A stretch of 64,000 bases of DNA. Origin: Candidatus Shapirobacteria bacterium (GTDB lineage Bacteria > Patescibacteriota > Microgenomatia > UBA12405 > BS750m-G30). The stretch covers positions 35,223-99,222 of the forward strand of contig JBDRHA010000011.1 in NCBI GenBank assembly GCA_043817235.1, given 5' to 3'. This document shows positions 18,788 to 28,840 of this stretch, piece by piece; the stretch's first letter is position 1; the number at the start of each line of letters is the position of its first letter. The notes beneath the pieces were generated by a model. That model saw only the letters and a program-made list of their open reading frames with translations, was not told the DNA's origin and ran no database searches. The translations under genes and the position numbers were made by a program.

Positions 18788-19819
18788 CTAGTCTTTTTTC
18801 TGGACCAAGCTAATTACTTCTTTGGTGACCTTTTCCGTAAATGAGGAGTTTTTTTCCAAGTGGTCTTTGGTTGCCTCCCGTCCCTGGCCTAAGTTTTCTT
18901 TTTTATACTTAAAAAATGACCCGGATTTGGTTATTACATTATATTTTAAAGCCATATCCAAAATACACCCCGATTGAGATACACCACCTACGTTCATAAT
19001 TTCGAATTCGGCATCTTTAAAAGGCGGAGCAACTTTGTTTTTGACTACTCTAGCTCGATGGGTACTGCCAATTACTATCCCCTCGGCATCTTTAATGTTG
19101 CCGGTTTTGCGTAAATCAATGCGCACCGAAGAATAAAACTTTAAAGCCATGCCGCCGGAAGTTGTTTCCGGGTTGCCAAAGAATACGCCTATTTTATGGC
19201 GAATTTGATTGGTAAAAATAACTGCTGTTTTAGACTTAGCAATTGCTCCGGTCAATTTGCGCAGCGCCTGAGACATTAACCTCGCCTGAACACCCACCAT
19301 AGCATCGCCCATTTCTCCTTCAATCTCTGCTCGGGGAACTAAAGCAGCTACTGAATCAACAACTACTAAATCAAGCCCTCCCGAACGAACCAAGGTTTCT
19401 ACAATTTCCAAACCCTGTTCGCCCGTATCCGGCTGGGAAATTAATAAGTCATCAAGCTTGACTCCAATCTGTTCTGCCCGCTGTGGATTTAAAGCGTGCT
19501 CAGCATCCACGAAAGCGGCCACACCTTTCTTTTTTTGCGCCTCGGCAATAACATGCAGACAAACCGTAGTTTTTCCTGAAGCTTCAGGCCCATAAATTTC
19601 CGATACTCGACCGCGGGGAATGCCTCCGACGCCCAAAGCCAAATCTAAAGTCAGACAGCCAGTAGAAATAGCCGGAACATCAACTGCTTTTTGGTCGCCC
19701 AACTTCATAATCGCACCCTTGCCGTACTGTTTTTCAATCTGCTCCATGGCTATTTTAACCGCCTGCAGTTTCTGTTTTTGAATATTACTATTACCCGAAG
19801 ACATAATCAATTTAACCAT
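18788..19819 (-). CDS. recA: recombinase RecA
   Basis: Walker [10 protein letters not shown], and ...[19 protein letters not shown]. Full-length RecA. Confidence 0.9.
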
Positions 19820-19856
19820 ACACTATGTTAAAATACAATAGATATTTAAAGCTAAA

Positions 19857-19871
19857 AACGGAGCGTGGCGC
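19857..19871 (+). repeat. 15-nt direct repeat AACGGAGCGTGGCGC (copy 1), a duplicate of the tRNA-Pro 5' end, followed by a GC-rich hairpin (19872-19911)
   Basis: Identical to 20161-20175. It is followed by CGCGCCCGC...GCGGGCGGG and then AATTGGCAAGC, which resembles the tRNA D-loop AATTGGCTAGC. Confidence 0.7.
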
Positions 19872-19925
19872 CGCGCCCGCTAACGCCTGAGCGTAGCGAT
19901 GGCGGGCGGGTAATTGGCAAGCACT

Positions 19926-20162
19926 ATGTATATTACCTATGTTTTAAAAAGTAAAAAAGATAATAAGTTATACATCGGATACACTAAGAATATAGAAGCA
20001 AGACTAGAAGAACACAATCACGGATTGGTCAATGCAACGAAAAATAGAAGGCCGTTCGAAGTAGTTTATTTCGAAGCATGCAGAAACAAACATAAAGCTT
20101 TACAAAGAGAAAAATATTTTAAAACAGGTTTTGGAAGAAGATTTTTGAAAACAAGAATTTAA
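19926..20162 (+). CDS. small GIY-YIG nuclease family protein (COG2827-like)
   Basis: MYITYVLKSKKDNKLYIGYTKNIEARLEEHNHG is a GIY-YIG/URI domain. Start set at ATG 19926 (the ORF track begins at TTG 19914). Confidence 0.7.
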   Translation: MYITYVLKSKKDNKLYIGYTKNIEARLEEHNHGLVNATKNRRPFEVVYFEACRNKHKALQREKYFKTGFGRRFLKTRI

Positions 20163-20175
20163 CGGAGCGTGGCGC
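20161..20175 (+). repeat. 15-nt direct repeat copy 2 (overlaps the GIY-YIG stop codon and the tRNA-Pro 5' end)
   Basis: Exact match to 19857-19871; the two copies are 304 bp apart. Confidence 0.7.
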
Positions 20176-20236
20176 AATTGGCTAGCGCGTTCGGATGGGG
20201 TCCGAAAGGCTGCGGGTTCAAATCCCGCCGCTCCGA
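20163..20236 (+). tRNA. tRNA-Pro (anticodon GGG), CCA not encoded
   Basis: Hand fold: acceptor CGGAGCG/CGCUCCG with the C1-G72 pair typical of tRNA-Pro; D-stem GCGC/GCGC; anticodon stem UUCGG/CCGAA; loop AUGGGGU (U33, G37); T-arm GCGGG-UUCAAAU-CCCGC; discriminator A. Confidence 0.75.
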
Positions 20237-20263
20237 CACATGTTTTAAGATATATAATAAGTT

Positions 20264-22135
20264 ATGGATCAAACTGAAGGACAACCTAAGTTCGAGATTC
20301 AAGCAGTAATTGAACAAAAACCATTTGCAGCCAGAACCGCAAGGTCTTTTTTTAGCAAATGGTGCGAAATAAATAGCTCTATTCAGCCAGAATTTATTGA
20401 CCGAGAGACGTGGGAAGCAAGAAACCAAGAAGGCATCTTGGAAGAAAGATCGGGCGGAAAACAGGTTCTTTTTATTCCTAAAGATTTACATCTTTGGGAA
20501 ATGATCGGGGTAATGGAAGCCATAGACAACTCTACCTTCGCCGCAAAACTGGAAAGACGAACTGAAGCAAAAGAGAAATTATTAAAGCTTGGAAAAAATT
20601 TTCAAGATGCCGGGGCTTACATTGCCCAACGATTAGGCGGAATTAACGAAGGCAAGGGCATAGCAGAGGCACTTGCTCTGGAATTCTATGGCTATGGACA
20701 GTCTCTAATCTCAGGAAAAAAACCAAAAGATGCTTCTAGTATAGAAGAAATTGCCGCAAGAGAACTCACACCGGAAGAACTAGAGGCAACTGATCGCTTT
20801 CTGACTGGAGAAAGTCTTTATAAATCTCGACAAAAAAGAGCTAAGAACAATCTTGAAAAAGAGCGGCAAAAAACTCTGGCCCAGTTTTTCCGTCTAGCCG
20901 AGAAAGCTTTTACTCTTACCAAGAGAAGCGAACTCCACAAGCCCAGCACAAGGTTAAAACCATGGCAGAGTGACGCACCAATCCATGCTGTATTTCTCGA
21001 AAGAGTGGAAAAAGCAGTAACTCAAAAGATCAAAACTCCCGAAAGAGAGCTCACGGCCGCAGTTTTTCGGCGCGGCCTAGAGAGACTGGCGAGTGAAATG
21101 AGAGAAACCACTGACATGCACGACGAAAGGACCGGAGAAATCACGCCAGGATGGAAAAGAGCTTTAAATAAGTTTCTTGTCAATATTGGGCTTGATCCAA
21201 TCATTGAGCAAAAAAGATTAATGGAAGTGCTCGAGATTCCGAAACTAAGAAACGAATTGAAAGATATCCACCGCTCAGGAGACTCTGTCCAAATAAGCAC
21301 TAAAGAGCGGGAAATTGCTGATAAAATCCAACGAGCAGTATCTGATTTTCCTTATCAAGAGTTTGCAAATAGTCCAGCGAAAATGATCGCTAAAAAATAC
21401 GTCAATTGCGTAGGAGCATCAATGCTGGGAGGCGCTTTAATGAAGGAAGTCGGGTTAAGGTACTTAGTCGCAGATGCGCCCGACCATTCCGTAATCCTTC
21501 TTATAACCAATGACGGAGAAGTTGAATTGCGAGACATGGGAAGGGTTTCAGGAAATGTAAAGTTAAAAGATGAAATGATTAAAAAGCAAAAAGAAGATGG
21601 CAGTCTTCTTGCCGTAAAAGACATTGTGGCCTTCAGCCTTAACCCTTCGCCTAAAGGGTTAAGGTTTGATGTTATCAGCCCGGTTTATCGTATTATTTTC
21701 CCCTGGGTGCAAGCAATTGATCGGCCATATTTGACTGTATTCGGGCCTGAACACGGAGAACAAGCTCAGGTATTAGGAAATACTGCTAACACTTTTTGGT
21801 CCATACTTAATTTCGAAAAAAGCACTGAAGGTTATCGTCGGGTTATAGCAACTGATCCGAATAAAAGTACGGTATATTTTAATTTGGGTCTTGCTTTTTA
21901 CGCTCACAGTCGGGAGAAAGAAGCAATAAAATTTTTTCGGCAAGCATTAGTTATTAATCCCAAGTTTGCAGATGCTTACTATGAACTAGCCCAGGTCTTC
22001 CAATCTTATAAGCGCTATCAGGAAGCAGCTGAAACATACCGGGAATTTATTGGTCTAGCAGATGAAAATAGAGATAAAAGAAAAATAAAAAGAGCTAAGC
22101 GAATGATTGCTAAATTAGCAAAAAGATCTAATTAA
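20264..22135 (+). CDS. hypothetical 623-aa protein: transglutaminase-like Cys-His-Asp core plus C-terminal TPR repeats
   Basis: KYVNCVGASMLGGALMKEVGLRYLVADAPDHSVILLITNDGEVELRD resembles the C...H...D core of transglutaminase-like peptidases (inference). The C-terminal YFNLGLAFYAHSREKEAIKFFRQALVINPKFADAYYELAQVF are TPR repeats. Confidence 0.5.
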   Translation: MDQTEGQPKFEIQAVIEQKPFAARTARSFFSKWCEINSSIQPEFIDRETWEARNQEGILEERSGGKQVLFIPKDLHLWEMIGVMEAIDNSTFAAKLERRTEAKEKLLKLGKNFQDAGAYIAQRLGGINEGKGIAEALALEFYGYGQSLISGKKPKDASSIEEIAARELTPEELEATDRFLTGESLYKSRQKRAKNNLEKERQKTLAQFFRLAEKAFTLTKRSELHKPSTRLKPWQSDAPIHAVFLERVEKAVTQKIKTPERELTAAVFRRGLERLASEMRETTDMHDERTGEITPGWKRALNKFLVNIGLDPIIEQKRLMEVLEIPKLRNELKDIHRSGDSVQISTKEREIADKIQRAVSDFPYQEFANSPAKMIAKKYVNCVGASMLGGALMKEVGLRYLVADAPDHSVILLITNDGEVELRDMGRVSGNVKLKDEMIKKQKEDGSLLAVKDIVAFSLNPSPKGLRFDVISPVYRIIFPWVQAIDRPYLTVFGPEHGEQAQVLGNTANTFWSILNFEKSTEGYRRVIATDPNKSTVYFNLGLAFYAHSREKEAIKFFRQALVINPKFADAYYELAQVFQSYKRYQEAAETYREFIGLADENRDKRKIKRAKRMIAKLAKRSN

Positions 22136-22875
22136 GCCAACTGGATATAGGTAATATTTCTATCCCCAAAATAGGATACTAGAGAATCTTTGTCGTGAGA
22201 AACAGAAGTAAAATCAATCCCAGTACATTTATTCTCAACCAATGCTTGTTTCGCTTTATCGTTTACATAAAACCCAATCGGGTTGACTACGGTTGGAGAA
22301 AAAAACAAATCCAAGTCTTTATATAGTCCCGATTTTATAGCTAAGATTTCCGCCCAAACTTGGGTAACCTCTTTGGTATTCAAACTTTCTTTATCGGCTC
22401 TCATCACTTCTTTTGCCGAATTTAAATTTAATTGTTTTAACTTTTTTTTCGATATTACTTCAATCAGCCAAAATTTAGATTTTTTAAAGTCAATTTGTTT
22501 TAAATGCTCCTTTTGCTCGATAACCTGAAAGGCATTATAGCCGCCAATCTTTTTTCCCCTCTGTTTTAAGATAACCGAATGAATCTGATAAGGTGGTAAT
22601 TTTAAACCTAAAAAAATCTTTAGTAGTTTGTTACTAACAACTAAAACAGAGGGATTAAGAGGCACACAGCTAATAAGATCAGTTAAAGTTGCCCCGTCTA
22701 TTACCTCCAAATAGTTAAAATTTGGCTTAAGGTTAGGAAATTTAATCTGATTAAGTTTATAAACTGAATCAGGTGCGTTTTTATCGTAGTCCGGACTCAT
22801 TTTTCGGCATTGAGGATAGGGAGCCCTGCCAATTCCGGTTAATGAATGCTTTAGCAAATAGATCGCTGACTTCAT
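22132..22875 (-). CDS. hypothetical protein (247 aa)
   Basis: Long ORF with a complex composition, convergent with the TPR gene and overlapping it by 4 nt. No recognisable family. Confidence 0.45.
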   Translation of the reverse strand: MKSAIYLLKHSLTGIGRAPYPQCRKMSPDYDKNAPDSVYKLNQIKFPNLKPNFNYLEVIDGATLTDLISCVPLNPSVLVVSNKLLKIFLGLKLPPYQIHSVILKQRGKKIGGYNAFQVIEQKEHLKQIDFKKSKFWLIEVISKKKLKQLNLNSAKEVMRADKESLNTKEVTQVWAEILAIKSGLYKDLDLFFSPTVVNPIGFYVNDKAKQALVENKCTGIDFTSVSHDKDSLVSYFGDRNITYIQLA

Positions 22876-22927
22876 AGCCTAATTTTCCCAAAACCTAACT
22901 GCCCTTGTCAATTATCAAACTAAAGCT

Positions 22928-22953
22928 TATCTCTTCAGAGATTGCTTTTTCCC
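22928..22953 (+). repeat. copy (a) of the rpsI 3'-end sequence (att-like core)
   Basis: TATCTCTTCAGAGATTGCTTTTTCCC. The minus strand reads GKKQSLKR-stop, against rpsI KKKQSPKR-stop, and matches 28003-28030 at 24 of 28 positions. Confidence 0.65.
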
Positions 22954-22990
22954 TTTTCAAAAAAACTCTGATTTTGATAAAATTAACTGA

Positions 22991-23936
22991 ATGAAAAAAA
23001 TTTTATTAATTGATGCTGACGGCATAGTAATTGAGCCACGCGATAGGTATTTTAGCGAAAAGTTTTCTGAAGAATATAATGTTCCTCTTGAAAAAATTCT
23101 TCCATTTTTTAAAAACGAGTATAAAAAGGCATCTTTAGGAAAGATTGATCTAAGAAAAGCCTTACCGGCTTACCTCAAAAGGTGGGGGCTGGAAAAAAAG
23201 CGTGAATGACTTTCTTGAATACTGGTTTGAGAGTGAAAAGAAAGTAGACAAACAAATAATAAGCCTGGTAGATAATTTAAGAAAAAGAGGCATTAAGTGC
23301 TATCTTGTTTCTGATAACGAAAAAAGAAGAACAGAGTATTTATGGGACAATTTAAATTTAAAAAATCATTTTGATGGTGCTTTTTCCTCCTCTGCCTCAG
23401 GGGTCACAAAATCGGAAAAATCCTTTTTCCAAAAAATATTAACCAAGTTATCAGCGACACCCTCTGAAATAATTTACTGGGACGATGATCTTAAAAACGT
23501 TAAGACTGGAAAAGCAGCAGGGATAGAATCTTATTTTTACAAAGATTTTGGGGAATTTATTAGAAGGTTAGACAAAGTATTACCTAAAGTAATGAAAAAA
23601 GTTATGGCCTTCAATAGTGATGATTTTTATTGCGATCTAGTTTTTAGCAAGAAAATTAAAGTGAAAATTGTTAAAGAAACAAAAGAACTATTAGCTTTTT
23701 ATCATACTCGGCCAAGCTGGTCGACTCATATCGTAATTGTCCCCAAAAAACATATTGCTAAACTTACAGACGTAAAAGACATGAATCTGATTAAAGAAAT
23801 TTTTTCTATTGCTAAAGAAATTATTATCGAAAATGATTGGGATAATAAAAACTTCAAAATAATTTCGAATGGCGGAACTTTTCAAGATTCCGAACATCTT
23901 CATTTTCATCTCGTTTCCGGAAAGAAAATAAGATAG
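22991..23936 (+). CDS. HAD-IA hydrolase fused to a HIT-family hydrolase, split by a frameshift near 23202
   Basis: ORF1 carries HAD motif I (LLIDADGIV). ORF2 carries HAD motifs II-IV (YLVSDN, K, WDDD) and then a HIT domain with the histidine triad HLHFHLV. The two ORFs overlap by 8 nt at GGAAAAAAAGCG. The second frame is open from about 23150, so a 1-nt indel would fuse them. Confidence 0.5.
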
Positions 23937-23963
23937 ATCAGAGGAGATTGCTTTTTCTTTCTA
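23937..23963 (+). repeat. copy (b) of the rpsI 3'-end sequence (att-like core, degenerate)
   Basis: ATCAGAGGAGATTGCTTTTTCTTTC. The minus strand reads KKKQSP.., and GGAGAtTGCTTTTTCTT matches the rpsI end. Confidence 0.55.
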
Positions 23964-23991
23964 TTACTATTAACAATAACTTTTGTTAAAA

Positions 23992-23997
23992 TTGACA
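23992..23997 (+). promoter_or_regulatory. TTGACA -35-like box upstream of the dinD-like gene
   Basis: AATTGACA lies about 30 nt downstream of repeat (b). No canonical -10 at 17-nt spacing. Confidence 0.2.
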
Positions 23998-24043
23998 GGT
24001 GAAAATTACCTAAGCTTTGGAGGAGTTATTTCGAAACGATTTA

Positions 24044-24886
24044 ATGAAAAAATCAAATTCGATCATCTTATTCAAACAGAAAAAAATTCGTCGCACTTGG
24101 GACGAACAAAAGGAACTATGGTATTTCTCGATTGTTGATGTTGTTGGTATATTGACTGGTAGCCCAAGACCACGAAAATACTGGAATGCTCTTAAAACAA
24201 AGCTAAAAGAGGAAGGAAGTGAGTTGCCCCAAAAAGTGGGACAACTGAAATTAAAATCATCTGACGGAAAAAAATATTTTACAGATGTCGCTGTTGTAGA
24301 AACTCTTTTAAGACTGATTCAATCAATTCCATCGCCTAAAGCTGAGCCATTTAAGGTATGACTGGCTAAAGTGGGTTATGAAAGAATTGAAGAGACCGAA
24401 GATCCTGAGCGTGCAATAGATAGAGCGATGAAAACTTATTTGCAAAAAGGATACTCAAAAGAATGGATAAATCAGCGATTAAAAAGCATTGAAGTCAGAA
24501 AAGAACTTACCGATGAATGGCAAGACAGAAAGATGAAAGAGGGACTGGAATGCGCAATATTGACAGATGAAATTACAAAAGCTTGGGCTGACAAAAGCGT
24601 TAGAACTTATAAAAAGTTCAAGGGCCTAAAAAGAGAAAATCTGCGGGATAATATGACAAATTTGGAGTTGATTCTCAATATGCTGGCAGAGGCCCCTACA
24701 ACGGAAATATCTAAAAAGCAACTGCCGAGGGGGCAAAAATAAAAATGATCAGTAGCCCGCAAAGGTGGCTGCGCAGCCAAGAAAGCAAGACTTGAAATTG
24801 AAAAACAAACTGGAGAAAAAGTTGTTAGCCCTAAAAATGCTAAACGTTTACACGGGAAAGAATCAAAGAAATTACCAACAAACTAA
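24044..24886 (+). pseudogene. DNA-damage-inducible protein D (DinD)-like gene with three in-frame stop codons
   Basis: A single frame encodes a DinD-like N-terminus (TWDEQKELWYFSIVDVVGIL...). After TGA at 24359-24361 comes ..YSKEWINQRLKSIEVRKELTDEW..LKGLKRENLRDNMTNLELI..EAPTTEI, and after TAA 24740 and TGA 24746 comes ..ARKGGCAAKKARLEIEKQTGEKVVSPKNAK. There are no frameshifts. ORF-track pieces are 24017..24361 and 24371..24742. Confidence 0.6.
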
Positions 24887-24912
24887 TTTACCTCTTCGGA
24901 GATTTTTTTAAT
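24887..24912 (+). repeat. copy (c) of the rpsI 3'-end sequence (att-like core)
   Basis: AATTTACCTCTTCGGAGATTTTTTTA. TTACCTCTTCGGAGA is identical to the rpsI end, and the minus strand reads ..KSPKR-stop. Confidence 0.6.
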
Positions 24913-24919
24913 AGACTAA

Positions 24920-24948
24920 TTGACAAAATTTTACAGGAAAGATAAACT
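24920..24948 (+). promoter_or_regulatory. sigma70-like promoter TTGACA-N17-TAAACT upstream of the DUF3160-like gene
   Basis: TTGACA at 24920-24925, a 17-nt spacer, TAAACT at 24943-24948, and ATG at 24963. Confidence 0.4.
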
Positions 24949-24962
24949 GGGTTCATACCTCT

Positions 24963-27287
24963 ATGACTATGGAAGATCAAAATTATAATCAGATTGTGCC
25001 GGAAAATCTTCAAACCGCGCCACCCATTGTTCCTAAACCAAAAAACAAGAAAAAGTTTTTTATAGTTTCAGGAATTTTAGGAACTCTAATAATTACTTTT
25101 CTAGCCTTTTACTTGGGGCAGTTAAGCCGGGAAACATTAAAGGAAGCCCCTCAAAACACTAATAATCCAGCTTCTATTTTGACTGCTAATTTCGCTACCT
25201 ATGAAGAAATACCGGTAAACATCAACCCGAAAATCCCGCCTTATTCGGTCAGCCAAGACCTGAGCAATGTTTTAAATGCAGAAGATTTTACTTTTTCTTC
25301 AGAAGTGAAAGATTTATTAGTAAAAAACGCCTTTGCTGTAAGACCAGCTCACAACGACGAGTTTTTCTCGCTTTACGAGTCAAATCGCTATAACTACACA
25401 CCGAATTTCATTACTACTGATTCCATGATCCATAATTACCACTTGATGTTCGATTTCTTGCTAAAACAGCTTGAGGAGCAAAAACTTGCAGATGAGCTAA
25501 AACAGTTAAGCGCGAATATGCTTTCTGAGTCATTAAGTCAACATAGTAGTTTGAAAGGAACAGAATGGGAAAATGCCGCGAAAAGGAATGTCGGATTTTT
25601 CACTGTCGGCAGTAAACTTCTGGACCCATCGCTAGCCGTTCCTTCCCTTGTCACAAATGAGGTAAACCAAGAACTAACTCTTATCGAAGCTCATCAGAAC
25701 ATAGAGAAGTCGCCTGTAATGAGTATTGGCAGCGCCAATAATACTATGATCGATACCCCGCAAGGACTACAATCACTAGAGGCGCTAAAAGAAGATTATT
25801 CCCAATATATACCTCGTGGACATTATGACAAAACAGAACAGCTAAAAGCCTATTTTAAGTCAATGATGTGGTATGGACGTCTAACTTTCAGAATGAAAAA
25901 TGATGATGAAATAAAATCAGCCTTACTTATCACTTTGGCTCTCAGCAAAGAGGACAATCAAAACAGCTGGAATAAGATTTACGAGCCGGTGAATTTCTTT
26001 GTGGGCAAGAGCGATGACATTACGTATTATCAATTAAAGGATTTAGTAGAAAAAGTTTACGGTACGAATGCGACAATTCAATTGGTAGCAAATGATAAAA
26101 ATAAACTTGCCTCTTTCATTGACGAAACTAAAAATTTGGAACCACCGCAAATAAATTCCATACCCATTTTTGAAGCTTCAATCCAAGCCGATAGAGAAAA
26201 AGAAATTAAGGGGTTTCGCTTTATGGGGCAAAGATTCACTATCGATGCTTCTATCTTTCAACGACTAGTTTATCGGGAAGTTGGCGATAAAACTAAATCT
26301 TGTCAAGAATTTAAACCAAACGAAACAGGCTGCCTGCAAGGAGCGCGGTGTCTTCCTAAAGGGCTAGATATCCCTGCGACTCTAGGATCAAACGAGGCTA
26401 AAAATACATTGAAAGGATTAGGTGAAACCAGCTATTCTTGCTACTCGGAAAACATGGCCAAAATGAACGAGTACATTACCAGTCTTAATACAGAGACCTG
26501 GACTCAAAACTTATATTGGGGTTGGCTATATCAACTTCGCCCGCTCCTTGATGAAAAATTGAGCGGTTATCCAAGTTTTATGCAAAACACCGCCTGGCTA
26601 AGAAAAGATCTCAGCGCGTTTTTGGGGAGTTGGACAGAATTGAAGCATGATACCATACTTTACGCAAAACAAGTTTATGCCGAGTTTGGCGGAGGCCTTA
26701 TCGAAGAAAAAGACGATCGCGGTTATGTTGAGCCGAATCCTTTTGTTTACGCGCGTCTTGCTTCACTTCTGAGAATGACAAGCGAAGGACTAGAAATACG
26801 AGGATTATTAACAACAAGCATGAAAGATAATTTAAGCAAATTGGAACAATTAGCAGTGTCGCTCAAAATAATATCGGAAAAAGAATTGAATAATGAAGAA
26901 TTAACTAACGAAGAATACGAGCTTATTCGCTCGTATGGTGGGCAATTAGAGCATTTTTGGCTGGAAGTTAACAAAGATGAAGCAACCTTCAAAGAGTCTA
27001 CCAGTCAAGAAGACTACCTAAACGAGAATCCGGCTGCCATTGTGGCGGATGTTGCTACTGACCCGAATGGAAGAGTACTAGAAGAGGGCACTGGTAATAT
27101 TTTTGAGATCTTTGTCGTAATTCCGATTGATGGTAAATTAAGAATTGCCAAAGGCGGTGTTTATTCCTACTACGAGTTTACTTGGCCTCTCTCAGAGAGA
27201 CTAACTGACAAGAAATGGCGAGAAATAATTGACTCCGACCAAACCCCCCAGCTACCGGAATGGACTAATAATTATATAGCCCAGTAG
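24963..27287 (+). CDS. large membrane-anchored extracytoplasmic protein (DUF3160-like)
   Basis: 774 aa with an N-terminal TM helix and a large domain with conserved Cys pairs. It resembles DUF3160 proteins; family assignment from memory only. Confidence 0.45.
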   Translation: MTMEDQNYNQIVPENLQTAPPIVPKPKNKKKFFIVSGILGTLIITFLAFYLGQLSRETLKEAPQNTNNPASILTANFATYEEIPVNINPKIPPYSVSQDLSNVLNAEDFTFSSEVKDLLVKNAFAVRPAHNDEFFSLYESNRYNYTPNFITTDSMIHNYHLMFDFLLKQLEEQKLADELKQLSANMLSESLSQHSSLKGTEWENAAKRNVGFFTVGSKLLDPSLAVPSLVTNEVNQELTLIEAHQNIEKSPVMSIGSANNTMIDTPQGLQSLEALKEDYSQYIPRGHYDKTEQLKAYFKSMMWYGRLTFRMKNDDEIKSALLITLALSKEDNQNSWNKIYEPVNFFVGKSDDITYYQLKDLVEKVYGTNATIQLVANDKNKLASFIDETKNLEPPQINSIPIFEASIQADREKEIKGFRFMGQRFTIDASIFQRLVYREVGDKTKSCQEFKPNETGCLQGARCLPKGLDIPATLGSNEAKNTLKGLGETSYSCYSENMAKMNEYITSLNTETWTQNLYWGWLYQLRPLLDEKLSGYPSFMQNTAWLRKDLSAFLGSWTELKHDTILYAKQVYAEFGGGLIEEKDDRGYVEPNPFVYARLASLLRMTSEGLEIRGLLTTSMKDNLSKLEQLAVSLKIISEKELNNEELTNEEYELIRSYGGQLEHFWLEVNKDEATFKESTSQEDYLNENPAAIVADVATDPNGRVLEEGTGNIFEIFVVIPIDGKLRIAKGGVYSYYEFTWPLSERLTDKKWREIIDSDQTPQLPEWTNNYIAQ

Positions 27288-27316
27288 ACAAATTTATTAC
27301 CATTACGAAAAGATGG

Positions 27317-27997
27317 ATGCAAAGAAAAATCGCAGGGTCAATTTTATTATCTTTCGTTTTTGTTGCTATCCTTTGGGGTTGTAAGCACTATTACCGAAGG
27401 CATTTTCCCTACTCATCAGTTTATTTTGGCAATAGCATTGCTTCAAAAAAAGAAATGGCTGACCTGGATAATAATTCCAGTCCAGAGACTTATTGTCTTG
27501 AAAACGGACGTCTGACCATCAAGGAAAATACAAAAACTGTTTGGCAATCACCCCTTGAGTGGCAGATAGATGATTTTGTTATTGAAGATTCTAATAACGA
27601 TGGCGTCTTGGATATAAATTTATCTCTTTGGAAACCAGGAAATTTTGGCACATCAAGGCCATTTTGGGTTGAAGAAAACGACATGAGCGTAAAAAATCAT
27701 TTTTTCGTTTTAGATTTTATTAACGGTTCGACAAAACAAATTTGGGGCTCTTCTAGTCTCAGTGAGCCAAATTGCGAATTTCAAATCGCTGATATTGATA
27801 ATGATGGAAAAAATGATTTGATCGTAATCGAAGGAGACTATTCCCAAAAACCAGATTGTAACGGAAATTATCTTGCTGTTTGGAAATGGAACGGCTGGGG
27901 ATTTTCAAATGAGTGGCGAAGTGAAAAAGGAAATTTTTCTCACTTTGAGATTGAAAAAATTGATGAAAAAGAGTACATTATCGCAAATCCGCCATGA
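27317..27997 (+). CDS. secreted/membrane-anchored protein with FG-GAP/calcium-binding-like DxDxDG repeats
   Basis: N-terminal TM/signal; DSNNDGVLDINLSLW and DIDNDGKNDLIVIEGDY motifs. Confidence 0.45.
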   Translation: MQRKIAGSILLSFVFVAILWGCKHYYRRHFPYSSVYFGNSIASKKEMADLDNNSSPETYCLENGRLTIKENTKTVWQSPLEWQIDDFVIEDSNNDGVLDINLSLWKPGNFGTSRPFWVEENDMSVKNHFFVLDFINGSTKQIWGSSSLSEPNCEFQIADIDNDGKNDLIVIEGDYSQKPDCNGNYLAVWKWNGWGFSNEWRSEKGNFSHFEIEKIDEKEYIIANPP

Positions 27998-28002
27998 GAA
28001 AC

Positions 28003-28030
28003 TTACCTCTTCGGAGACTGCTTTTTCTTG
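28003..28030 (+). repeat. copy (d): the authentic rpsI 3' end, reference copy of the repeated core
   Basis: TTACCTCTTCGGAGACTGCTTTTTCTTG encodes ..KKKQSPKR-stop on the minus strand. Confidence 0.65.
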
Positions 28031-28413
28031 CGGGCGCGGCCCATTTGCCCAGCTTTTCTTCTCTCTCTTATTCGCGAATCAACCGTGAGCAAGCCCTTCT
28101 CGCGCATGAGAGGCCTATAAACACCTTCGTTATACTTTACTAAAGCCCGAGCTAATGATAAAGATATTGCTTCTGCCTGGCTTTTAAAGCCGCCGCCTCT
28201 TACCCAAAAATAGCCATAAAACTTTCCTTGGCATTCACCGGCAATTAAAGGTTTTTCATAAATTGCCCTTAGTCTTTCGCCGGGAAAATATTTGGCAATT
28301 GGCCTTTGATTAACTGTAAATTCTCCCTTCCCTTCAAATAAGCGAAGGGTGGCCGAAGCCTCTTTTCTTCTTCCTTTGGAATATATGTATTTTTTCTTTC
28401 TGCCTTTAGCCAT
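28003..28413 (-). CDS. rpsI: 30S ribosomal protein S9
   Basis: Ends ..RRKAGQMGRARKKKQSPKR. Start set at MAKGRKK (ORF track 28461). Confidence 0.85.
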   Translation of the reverse strand: MAKGRKKKYIYSKGRRKEASATLRLFEGKGEFTVNQRPIAKYFPGERLRAIYEKPLIAGECQGKFYGYFWVRGGGFKSQAEAISLSLARALVKYNEGVYRPLMREKGLLTVDSRIRERRKAGQMGRARKKKQSPKR

Positions 28414-28840
28414 TGTCTTTTGCTTTAACAAACTCCATTTTAGCGTAAGGGTGCTTGTCATCTTTGTAAACCTTTAATCTCGTCATTCTTTTTTTTCTTA
28501 GTTTATTTTTCGGAAGCATCCCCCAAACCGCTTTTTCAATTACCATCTTGGGGTTTTTTTCTTTTAAATCTTTTAAGCTAATTTCTTTAATCCCTCCCGG
28601 GTAGCCGGTATAGTGCTGATAAAGCTTGTCTTTAAGCTTATTGCCGGTCACTCTAATTCTTGAGGCGTTAATAACGACTACATTGTCTCCTTGGTCCAGG
28701 TGATAGCTAAAAGAAGTTCTGTGTTTGCCCATAAGCAGTAAAGCAACTTGGCTGGCAAATCGGCCCAAGATTTCCCCTTTGGCGTCTAAAAGATGCCAAT
28801 TTCTTTCTCCTTTTTTCTTTTTACTATGCACTGTTTTCAT
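28406..28840 (-). CDS. rplM: 50S ribosomal protein L13
   Basis: NWHLLDAKGEILGRFAS...YHLDQGDNVVVINA is the L13 signature. Confidence 0.85.
   Translation of the reverse strand: MKTVHSKKKKGERNWHLLDAKGEILGRFASQVALLLMGKHRTSFSYHLDQGDNVVVINASRIRVTGNKLKDKLYQHYTGYPGGIKEISLKDLKEKNPKMVIEKAVWGMLPKNKLRKKRMTRLKVYKDDKHPYAKMEFVKAKDNG

Follow-up and report, generated by a model that had tools for sequence, protein, structure and literature searches.

Integrative elements that target tRNA genes restore the tRNA with a fragment that they carry themselves; they use integrases, duplicate the 3' end of the gene, and are kilobases long. Dispersed hairpins that stand beside a nuclease gene, or bracket it, are known from the repetitive extragenic palindromic (REP) elements with their RAYT transposase (REPtrons), and from the hairpin ends of IS200/IS605. 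Rickettsia palindromic elements (RPEs), the subject of work by Ogata and colleagues in 2000, are said to insert in frame into protein genes, and we know of no autonomous partner for them. In fungal mitochondria, mobile open reading frames (ORFs) reportedly carry or create a duplicated gene end, Allomyces atp6 being the case that Paquin and colleagues are said to have described in 1994. To our knowledge, no function has been assigned to the bacterial stand-alone Slx1-like/UPF0213 proteins, structures of which have been solved since 2005. An analysis of the whole superfamily characterizes the prokaryotic Slx1-like proteins as stand-alone domains of minimal size whose role is unknown (Dunin-Horkawicz et al. 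2006, PMC1564403). SegB of phage T4 is presented in its description as a free-standing GIY-YIG homing endonuclease gene in a tRNA gene cluster (PMC2330249), and the account of Tsurumaki et al. 2024 (PMC11270868) places GIY-YIG ORFs in non-intron insertions of rRNA genes of the candidate phyla radiation (CPR), at scattered sites. In the current study, we analyzed a stretch of 64,000 nucleotides from a Candidatus Shapirobacteria bacterium (Patescibacteriota; contig JBDRHA010000011.1, positions 35,223 to 99,222), referred to below as the window, in which a 304-bp cassette precedes tRNA-Pro(GGG). The cassette combines a GC-rich palindromic hairpin, element H, with a small gene of the GIY-YIG nuclease family. 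Our preferred explanation, held with moderate confidence, is that of a two-part selfish cassette (H and a minimal GIY-YIG gene) that has settled in tRNA-Pro(GGG) on the promoter side, borrows the promoter of the tRNA for expression, and leaves its target working thanks to a partial gene duplication. The evidence places it in a hairpin-plus-minimal-nuclease system that is widespread in Patescibacteria and apparently undescribed so far; no description of the cassette was found in the open-access full-text literature.

The 15-mer AACGGAGCGTGGCGC occurs in two exact copies with 0 mismatches (Table 1); no further copy was found in the window at ≤2 mismatches, and none in 100 shuffles. A first-pass annotation, made from the letters of the window, had described these copies as a 15-nt duplication of the tRNA 5' end around a mobile insert, and many of its particulars are borne out: both repeat copies are exact, the second one starts a tRNA-Pro(GGG) that is recognized by ARAGORN and Rfam, a GC-rich hairpin follows the upstream copy, and the stop codon of the nuclease gene overlaps the second repeat (by 2 nt, the TAA abutting tRNA nt 1). 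Deletion of positions 19872-20175, i.e., 304 bp, would restore a single intact tRNA, as had also been claimed. The D-loop-like remnant noted behind the hairpin is real, and the extent of the duplication had been underestimated. Because AATTGGCAAGC matches tRNA nt 14-24 in 10/11 positions, the duplicated segment is 26 nt long, not 15. The upstream stub consists of 26 nt of tRNA-Pro(GGG), from nt -2 to nt 24, with 25/26 identity; H interrupts it between nt 13 and nt 14. Three nucleotides separate the stub from the nuclease ORF, which encodes 78 aa rather than the 79 aa given at first. A full copy of the tRNA follows the stop codon without a gap, which leaves the host with a functional tRNA. The composition of the cassette is foreign: the GC content is 75% in H and 28.7% in the nuclease ORF, compared to 40% in the window, and the GC content at third codon positions (GC3) is 24% in the ORF versus 34-41% in the adjoining genes. 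An Rfam scan at E up to 10 found no family besides tRNA, and none in the stub or the hairpin; this speaks against the idea, entertained in the first-pass annotation, that the upstream copy might be part of another functional RNA.

Table 1. Features of the cassette in the window and of the region around it.
Feature	Position	Strand	Remarks
Putative promoter TTAACC-16 nt-TACAAT	19812..19839	+	Consensus scan; 5' of the stub
Left repeat copy	19857..19871	+	AA + tRNA-Pro nt 1-13 (5' acceptor strand, nt 8-9, 5' D-stem); first part of the dead stub
H, GC-rich imperfect palindrome CGCGCCCGCTAACGCCTGAGCGTAGCGATGGCGGGCGGGT	19872..19911	no strand	40 nt, inserted after tRNA nt 13; dispersed palindromic family
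Second stub part AATTGGCAAGC	19912..19922	+	tRNA-Pro nt 14-24 (D-loop, 3' D-stem), 10/11 identical to the intact gene
78-aa stand-alone GIY-YIG nuclease gene	19926..20162	+	Pfam PF01541, 2.6e-18; stop TAA 20160-20162
Right repeat copy	20161..20175	+	Overlaps the nuclease stop codon and tRNA nt 1-13
Intact tRNA-Pro(GGG)	20163..20237	+	ARAGORN; Rfam RF00005 gives 20163-20236, 63.7 bits, E = 1.9e-13
recA	18788-19819	-	Borders the variable region
Variable region, 8.2 kb	19820-28002		Between recA and rpsI; tRNA-Pro, 623-aa TPR, 247-aa hypothetical, HAD-HIT fusion, Bro-N, 774-aa DUF3160, FG-GAP
rpsI	28003-28461	-	Borders the variable region

An exact 26-mer from tRNA-Pro had no match in metagenome contigs, and relatives of the host were reached via RecA (78-82% identity). 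In two of them, L084 (RecA 82% identical) and L083 (RecA 78%), recA and tRNA-Pro(GGG) are divergent and separated by spacers of 110 nt and 294 nt, respectively, without the nuclease gene and without the hairpin. The stub in the window occupies the position of the tRNA start in L084, near the promoter-like site listed in Table 1. The cassette is an insertion, and the homologous site is polymorphic for its presence, as is usual for homing endonuclease genes (HEGs), although the relatives compared are distant. As in the integrative elements that target tRNA genes, the target stays intact through a partial duplication; unlike in those elements, no recombinase was found in the cassette, the duplicated end is the 5' one, and the insert is 304 bp long.

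The same anatomy was observed at many genes. A scan of one genome per species recovered at least 584 loci of the nuclease family, and the layout figures refer to the best 80 of them together with the window (81 loci); these loci and the others named in the text, the relatives included, are numbered with the prefix L. Layouts were scored with a junction-anchored 'join' test; a permissive gapped local alignment of the flanks gave mostly junk blocks. H was sought with a fuzzy two-arm search, for which a reversed-sequence control produced 11 matches versus 82 at a 3-mismatch limit; later counts were made at 2 mismatches, and a finder of perfect-stem hairpins was dropped because it missed many H copies. 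A tRNA on the same strand lies within 160 nt after the ORF stop in 62 of the 81 loci, with a median gap of 6 nt and a gap of ≤10 nt in 38 loci; these downstream tRNAs have at least 13 identities, and no tRNA on the opposite strand was found after the ORF among the 81 loci. The complete order, i.e., stub, H, 5-19 nt of the continuing gene, a further 0-46 nt, ORF, and complete gene, is present in 51/81 loci. Across these 51 loci, the hairpin in the stub is of the CCCGCCCGC…GCGGGCGGG type, and the stub reproduces the leader of the downstream gene together with its 5' part. Many contigs terminate at the cassette, which is typical of repeats.

The length of the duplicated segment differs from locus to locus, with a left part of 6-30 nt and a right part of 5-19 nt, and stubs never extend beyond approximately nt 38. 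Because the length varies and one copy carries H, this is not the fixed duplication left by a staggered cut; the target duplication suggested in the first-pass annotation therefore does not hold in the classical sense, as one copy always holds the hairpin. The features of insertion sequences and transposons are likewise not those of the cassette. Instead of inverted repeats that bracket the enzyme gene, both arms of H lie upstream of the ORF, and a bracketed ORF, located within the loop of H, was seen in 4/81 loci (L058, L080, L026 and L069); instead of a fixed-length target duplication, there are two variable parts of a copy split by H. The notion of a mobile GIY-YIG cassette is nonetheless upheld by the site without the cassette in L084 and L083, a comparison that the first-pass annotation had proposed, and by the stub/ORF/tRNA layout at many tRNAs. 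A conserved GIY-YIG-tRNA operon without the repeat, which would have spoken against it, was not what we observed: the repeat is general across the loci. Its supposed homing to tRNA-Pro is doubtful, for reasons given below.

Individual loci extend this picture. In the closest case, L001, the target is tRNA-Pro(UGG), invaded at the identical position (after GGCGC, nt 13), and the hairpin shares its uncommon arm CGCGCCCGC with that of the window; L001 contains two tandem cassettes, in which the stub-hairpin parts are 100% identical, whereas the ORFs are approximately three-quarters identical by eye. A protein-coding target, the GxxGxxG region of an epimerase gene, is occupied with the same layout in L074, L069 and L160, and stubs of tRNA 3' ends with H in the T-arm were found in L108 and L158. 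In another variant, the order is ORF-spacer-H-tRNA-Lys(UUU): there is a separate TTGTCA…TATAAT promoter, H stands at approximately tRNA nt 3, and the GGG end of H regenerates the tRNA start. The synteny of this variant is conserved in at least four loci.

Several further observations were made at these loci. In L052, L053, L077 and L078, and also in L026, an AT-rich inverted repeat (ACCCTGTTAAATAA … TTATTTAACAGGGT) brackets a subclade of 84-aa nucleases; in the first four loci it lies within approximately 40 nt on either side of the ORF at 2501-2755. An 'ORF in hairpin loop' design with more than one hairpin family is suggested. In L019 (1004-1442), the stub-H-ORF-tRNA-Lys position that follows a member of the 78-aa family is filled by an ORF of another GIY-YIG family (MCYVYILCNEETDRYYIGSS…), and the stub has a small extra hairpin, CCCCGATTAAATCGGGG, in the D-loop. 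TRNA-like sequences with further inserts at or after the anticodon loop follow H in L024 (2745-2900) and L055 (2767-2900), and a partial 3' copy of tRNA-Gln follows the intact gene in L098 (4947-5020). A phage origin was considered and rejected: among 2.9 million viral contigs there was a single match, an ordinary ORF-H-tRNA-Lys locus.

The hairpin, mentioned in the first-pass annotation as a side feature, is an independent mobile palindrome that is dispersed on its own account. An exact 20-mer from H is present in at least 120 metagenome loci, of which 80 were fetched. Approximately 98 H copies were scored in those loci: 17 have a nuclease ORF within 120 nt and 81 do not; among the latter, 23 have an uninterrupted copy of the flanks nearby, and 58 are simple insertions. 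Over all loci, we counted 175 copies of H (137 unique), most of them 34-62 nt long, and several are nested in the loop of another H. Compared with a 38-nt variant that several unrelated contigs share, the H of the window has a single substitution and one additional T. The two orientations are represented 72:95 overall, and 22:29 directly upstream of ORFs; because both occur, H acts most simply at the DNA level. It should be noted that some H copies are found inside tandem heptamers (CCGATTA, CTACAAC, GTAATTG etc.; L103, L120, L123, L125, L127, L129 and L143), which mimic flanking repeats of 6-7 nt. Directly to the right of H, GGGGGAGTTGCCGG or AGTTGCCGG occurs in unrelated loci (L092, L141 and L100/L136), and this may be an extension of an H subfamily or a second repeat.

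H was also found in frame in protein genes of other Patescibacteria (L086/L106, L092, L121, L127, L162, L091, L087 and L104): those of a class-V aminotransferase (SufS-like), valyl-tRNA synthetase, a LepA-like GTPase, KsgA/RsmA, and MnmA (twice, at different sites), as well as glycosyltransferase genes. It contributes 13-17 extra residues (…PPATPE… or …RPQRLS…). The H-encoded peptides lie within the class-V aminotransferase, RrnaAD and MnmA domains, and between the GTP-binding domain and domain 2 in the LepA-like protein; valyl-tRNA synthetase was identified by eye. These in-frame and other clean insertions of H show no target duplication. In its features, H is similar to RPEs, being a short imperfect palindrome that is dispersed at many loci and inserted in frame in housekeeping genes, which is the RPE hallmark, and also in RNA genes. 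In contrast to RPEs, it is much shorter (34-62 nt), GC-rich in AT-rich genomes, present in Patescibacteria, and physically linked to a candidate mobilizing nuclease gene. With REP/RAYT and IS200/IS605 it shares dispersed hairpins that adjoin a nuclease gene or, as in the four loci with an ORF in the H loop, bracket it. The enzyme of the cassette belongs to the GIY-YIG family and is not an HUH Y1 transposase; the gene associated with H is the GIY-YIG one, and no genome-wide search for RAYT was made. Unlike REP elements, H resides in genes and tRNA stubs and not only between genes, and the partial duplication of a gene end is not known as a feature of REP/RAYT.

The stem of H is under selection. 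The outer 9-bp stem shows no compensatory change; in a register offset by 4 nt (CCCG|CCCGC-AA-CGCC…GGCG-G-GCGGG), 4 pairs with 11 cells are changed on both sides. The covariation score was reached in 0/500 shuffles and the pair count in 2/500, and no slid control came close. The covariation in the stem is indicative of selection on a hairpin in H. A minimum free energy fold of the stub with the hairpin was no more stable than shuffles (z = 0.09); composition alone explains the fold energy, and covariation was used instead.

In approximately 80 junctions in tRNA stubs, H is inserted between tRNA nt 1 and 21, with clusters before the D-stem (nt 8-9), in the D-loop (nt 15-17), and before the 3' strand of the D-stem (nt 19-21); in 3' stubs, it is found at the junction of the T-loop and T-stem. 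These junctions can be placed only to within 2-4 nt, and short stubs are overrepresented in the sample. Judged from their positions in the sequence, the junctions would fit an enzyme that acts on small DNA hairpins, which we regard as a lead and not as a test.

The protein encoded in the cassette has more than 1000 relatives at approximately 60-74% identity, nearly all of them from Patescibacteria where named. Among 30 relatives, Y5, Y16, G18, R26, H30 and E62 are invariant, and these include the conserved Tyr, Tyr, Arg and Glu of the GIY-YIG catalytic domain. An AlphaFold2 model (predicted local distance difference test, pLDDT, 96) consists of a single compact domain, and the whole 78-aa protein has no separate DNA-binding domain with a linker. 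Its nearest matches by sequence are the UPF0213 structures 1ZG2 (E = 1.4e-8) and 1YWL (5.3e-7), and in fold it most resembles UPF0213 and the Slx1 nuclease domain (PDB 7CQ3, 6SEI, 4XLG, 1ZG2 and 1YWL). In Foldseek comparisons, the model aligned to the Slx1 nuclease domain with a template modeling (TM) score of 0.68-0.76, a root-mean-square deviation of 2.0-3.6 Å and 29-35% identity, whereas the TM score for I-TevI was 0.50. The score against TIGR01453 (group I intron endonuclease) was 20 bits, below the cut-off of 56. By these sequence and model-based comparisons, the protein is a predicted minimal Slx1/UPF0213-like nuclease, not a homing enzyme of the I-TevI type. It shares with the Slx1/UPF0213 proteins both the best matches and the form of a minimal stand-alone domain; it differs from Slx1 in having no Slx4 partner and no RING domain, and in residing in a mobile-looking cassette. 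The CPR insertions mentioned above come from the same host group and, as described (PMC11270868), also place GIY-YIG ORFs in insertions of structural RNA genes that are not group I/II introns; there, however, the hosts are rRNA genes, and the portion of that account compared here, by description, makes no mention of hairpins, palindromes or tRNA genes.

The protein and its target co-vary weakly. Pairs of proteins with the same target are 64.7% identical, compared to 63.0% for pairs with different targets, and the nearest non-syntenic protein neighbor shares the target in 17/61 cases versus 9.3 expected. Because the similarity of the proteins tracks the target so weakly, a long target sequence read by the protein is unlikely, and this weak tracking, together with the lack of a DNA-binding module, makes sequence-specific homing to tRNA-Pro doubtful. 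The similarity of the modeled fold to Slx1 and the constant nearness of the gene to H would rather point to structure-specific cleavage of branched or hairpin DNA.

ORFs are found at 0-46 nt from the H-bearing stub or inside H, and some are decayed or lost. In L027, the ORF has an in-frame premature stop; in L074, it is frameshifted at its end; and in L031, two remnants of 24 nt are left, representing the first and last codons only. L160 is an ORF-less orthologue of L074, with the same stub, the same H and the same orientation, and the two epimerase genes are approximately 80% identical throughout. The import of a foreign 5' gene end was rejected as an account of L074/L160 on the basis of this uniform nucleotide identity; because identity is approximately 80% along the whole gene, the diverged stubs of the two loci reflect age. 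In the ORF-less stub-H-tRNA loci L095, L096, L098, L110, L137, L142 and L144, the distance from stub to tRNA is 20-80 nt, and some of the spacers resemble an ORF end. This pattern of gain, decay and loss is that of selfish nuclease genes. A second, near-full-length tRNA copy follows the intact one in L033 (2838-2940, Gln) and L070 (2812-2920, Thr), with H at the same D-loop position as in the stub; these copies may be intermediates of the duplication process, under either an active or a passive model.

By analogy, the cassette would work most like free-standing HEGs that duplicate a gene end. Both have a small intron-less nuclease ORF at the end of an essential gene, with presence/absence polymorphism, an interrupted gene that stays functional via a partial duplication, a displaced pseudo-end, and decay and loss of the ORF. 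The cassette differs from them in several respects, however. Its protein is a catalytic domain of 78 aa alone, nearer to Slx1 than to I-TevI, with no DNA-binding domain of its own; the duplicated end is the 5' and not the 3' one; a palindromic element always accompanies the gene; the target is regenerated rather than lost, without obvious immunity; and there are many targets with little co-variation of the protein.

Promoter-like pairs of -35 and -10 boxes are present within 60 nt upstream of the stub in 19/67 loci, compared to 2/67 control windows. In the window, the promoter-like site upstream of the stub is the putative original promoter of tRNA-Pro, which may now drive the stub, the hairpin, the nuclease gene and the tRNA. 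We propose the following course of events. The original 5' end of the tRNA would stay by its promoter as a dead stub of 26 nt, the nuclease gene would be read from the displaced tRNA promoter, and RNase P could release the tRNA from the 3' end of that transcript. The nuclease would probably act on hairpin or branched DNA, i.e., H itself and the hairpins of the D- and T-arms of tRNA genes, and not on a long specific sequence. Breaks might then be repaired by copying an allele that contains the cassette, the stub and the intact gene providing the homology arms, and new sites could be founded by rare microhomology or template-switch events. Later, the ORF would decay and be lost, leaving scars of stub plus H. 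Two models may be envisaged for the duplication: in the active one, fork collapse or a break at the hairpin would be followed by microhomology-mediated template switching; in the passive one, a tandem duplication would arise spontaneously, one of its copies would receive the insertion, and deletions would then trim the locus. We also considered a more far-reaching proposal, namely a mobile system of two components, H and the 78-aa GIY-YIG protein, that is specific to Patescibacteria. In it, Slx1-like cutting of DNA hairpins (the loops of H, and the D- and T-arm hairpins of tRNA genes when these are single-stranded) would drive the insertion of H and the gene, and the partial duplication would heal an essential gene that has been invaded; we put this forward only tentatively, as a possibility that we consider less probable than not.

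A number of points weigh against the selfish cassette in the form proposed. Cleavage and homing rest wholly on inference. The intact tRNA keeps the invaded sequence, and there is no classical homing immunity; homing endonucleases are expected to lose the target site and to have one site per enzyme lineage, whereas here the intact tRNA is regenerated and L001 has two cassettes. The latter locus suggests repeated invasion of an occupied site, which goes against a simple homing-endonuclease cycle but fits a selfish element. The clean insertion of H in the stub, the variable length of the duplication, and the random orientation of H (22:29 by ORFs) are not predicted by known insertion chemistry. 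The ORF-H-tRNA-Lys(UUU) loci look vertically inherited, leaving room for a host role. There are -10-like hexamers at the 3' end of the ORF (…AGAATATAAT), and because this end mimics a -10 box, the tRNA may have a separate promoter. Only one GIY-YIG copy of this type and one H-type hairpin are present in the window. Finally, the insertion is undated, because the nearest relatives are distant, with RecA identity of 82% or less.

Among the other explanations, a passive origin of the repeat deserves the most attention, although we judge it unlikely. The tRNA gene, or just its 5' part, would first have been duplicated in tandem by a spontaneous event; H and then the ORF would have entered the redundant upstream copy, the dispensable one, and deletion bias, which is strong in genomes of this small size, would have trimmed what had no function between the ORF and the tRNA. 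The cassette would be mobile in this case too, but the repeat would not be its product. The clean insertion of H without duplication, in in-frame copies and in the 58 of approximately 98 copies that have no second flank copy nearby, agrees with such an order of events, as do the near-full-length, H-disrupted tRNA copies beside the intact ones in L033 and L070, a degenerate full-length tRNA-Lys copy between the ORF and the tRNA in L014, and ORF-less stub-H-tRNA loci (L095, L096, L098, L137 and L144); the tight abutment of the stop codon and tRNA +1 also fits streamlining. On the other hand, prior duplications would be needed at 14 or more tRNAs and an epimerase gene, and the disrupted copy would have to be upstream whenever the ORF is present, as it is in every stub-bearing ORF locus with a called tRNA. 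Stubs never pass approximately nt 38, and the ORF always follows at 0-46 nt; stubs are also near-identical to the intact gene (25/26 here), which leaves little time for precise trimming unless gene conversion is at work. A host operon, in which the small GIY-YIG protein is a conserved tRNA-linked factor (acting, for example, in nucleic-acid processing or in repair where tRNA genes are highly transcribed) and the stub and hairpin form a leader or regulatory region, appears improbable. Conservation of the protein is strong, with 29 positions invariant across 30 sequences of different candidate phyla, the ORF is always co-oriented with the tRNA and directly upstream of it, and ORF-H-tRNA-Lys(UUU) has its own promoter and conserved synteny. 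Yet the cassette is absent at the same site in relatives, its partners are at least 13 different tRNAs and protein-coding genes, H is found in either orientation and most of its copies lack the gene nearby, and neither the stub nor the hairpin has an Rfam RNA family; decayed or deleted ORFs, tandem copies, contig breaks at the cassette and foreign base composition point away from a host factor as well.

The two remaining explanations concern the repeat itself, and we attach very little weight to either. The repeat might be an attachment-site duplication of a larger island (19.8-28.0 kb, recA to rpsI) that entered at tRNA-Pro by means of a site-specific recombinase. In two relatives, L081 and L082, rpsI directly adjoins recA, and for this reason the 8.2 kb between the two genes in the window constitute a variable region; its genes look accessory, including Bro-N, DUF3160 and TPR. 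An integrative island would, however, bring an integrase and duplicate the tRNA 3' end at both of its borders; no integrase or recombinase domain was found in the cassette or in the tested ORFs of the 19820-28002 region, only 304 bp separate the repeat copies, which lie together at one side of the island, and the duplication covers the 5' end of the tRNA. Moreover, L084 and L083 already have the divergent recA/tRNA-Pro pair without the cassette, and the same 300-bp layout is found in dozens of unrelated contexts. The island is contradicted by this geometry and is highly improbable. Chance similarity, or mis-assembly at a repeated element, is the least probable of all. It is true that the window stems from a metagenome-assembled genome and that contig ends often coincide with the cassette; nevertheless, 0/100 shuffles gave any further match, and the architecture recurs in more than 100 independent assemblies of many studies, including a chromosome-level record (L004, OZ246398.1). 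A tRNA intron, a group I intron or another intervening sequence was rejected: the insert is in the truncated stub, the functional tRNA is uninterrupted, and no Rfam family but tRNA was detected; 304 bp would also be too short for a ribozyme and the ORF together.

At the other end of the variable region, a 25-nt motif (AACTTACCTCTTCGGAGACTGCTTT) spans the rpsI stop codon (28000-28024), with further copies at 24885-24909 and 22924-22948 (84% and 76% identity); the copy at 24885 is followed by a T-run and is terminator-like. These copies had been taken in the first-pass annotation as a mirror of the duplication at tRNA-Pro. We rejected them as the same phenomenon: the motif is short, and there is no H and no nuclease gene alongside its copies. 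The 294-nt spacer that separates recA from tRNA-Pro in L083 (79-372) has a higher GC content, and the motif CTCCTCCGAGGTG is repeated within it; this spacer may represent a structured RNA or some repeat element.

The selfish cassette that we favor has practical consequences for genome analysis. Upstream tRNA fragments of this kind are best flagged in annotation as pseudo-stubs, not as split or duplicated tRNAs, and genome assembly would be affected, with contigs breaking at the cassette. The layout of approximately 300 bp would offer a compact natural scaffold for studies of break-induced duplication. If H and the nuclease gene do form a two-component system, it would provide the first autonomous partner for RPE-like palindromic elements inserted in frame, and the first biological role for bacterial UPF0213/Slx1-like proteins, with a chemistry of transposition or homing outside known classes; an orphan protein family would thereby acquire a testable role and a defined DNA partner, H. 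The cassette would also illustrate a design principle, in which a selfish gene placed between a tRNA promoter and a regenerated tRNA is expressed without harm to the host. By its presence in core enzymes and tRNA stubs, H would shape the evolution of protein and RNA genes in Patescibacteria.

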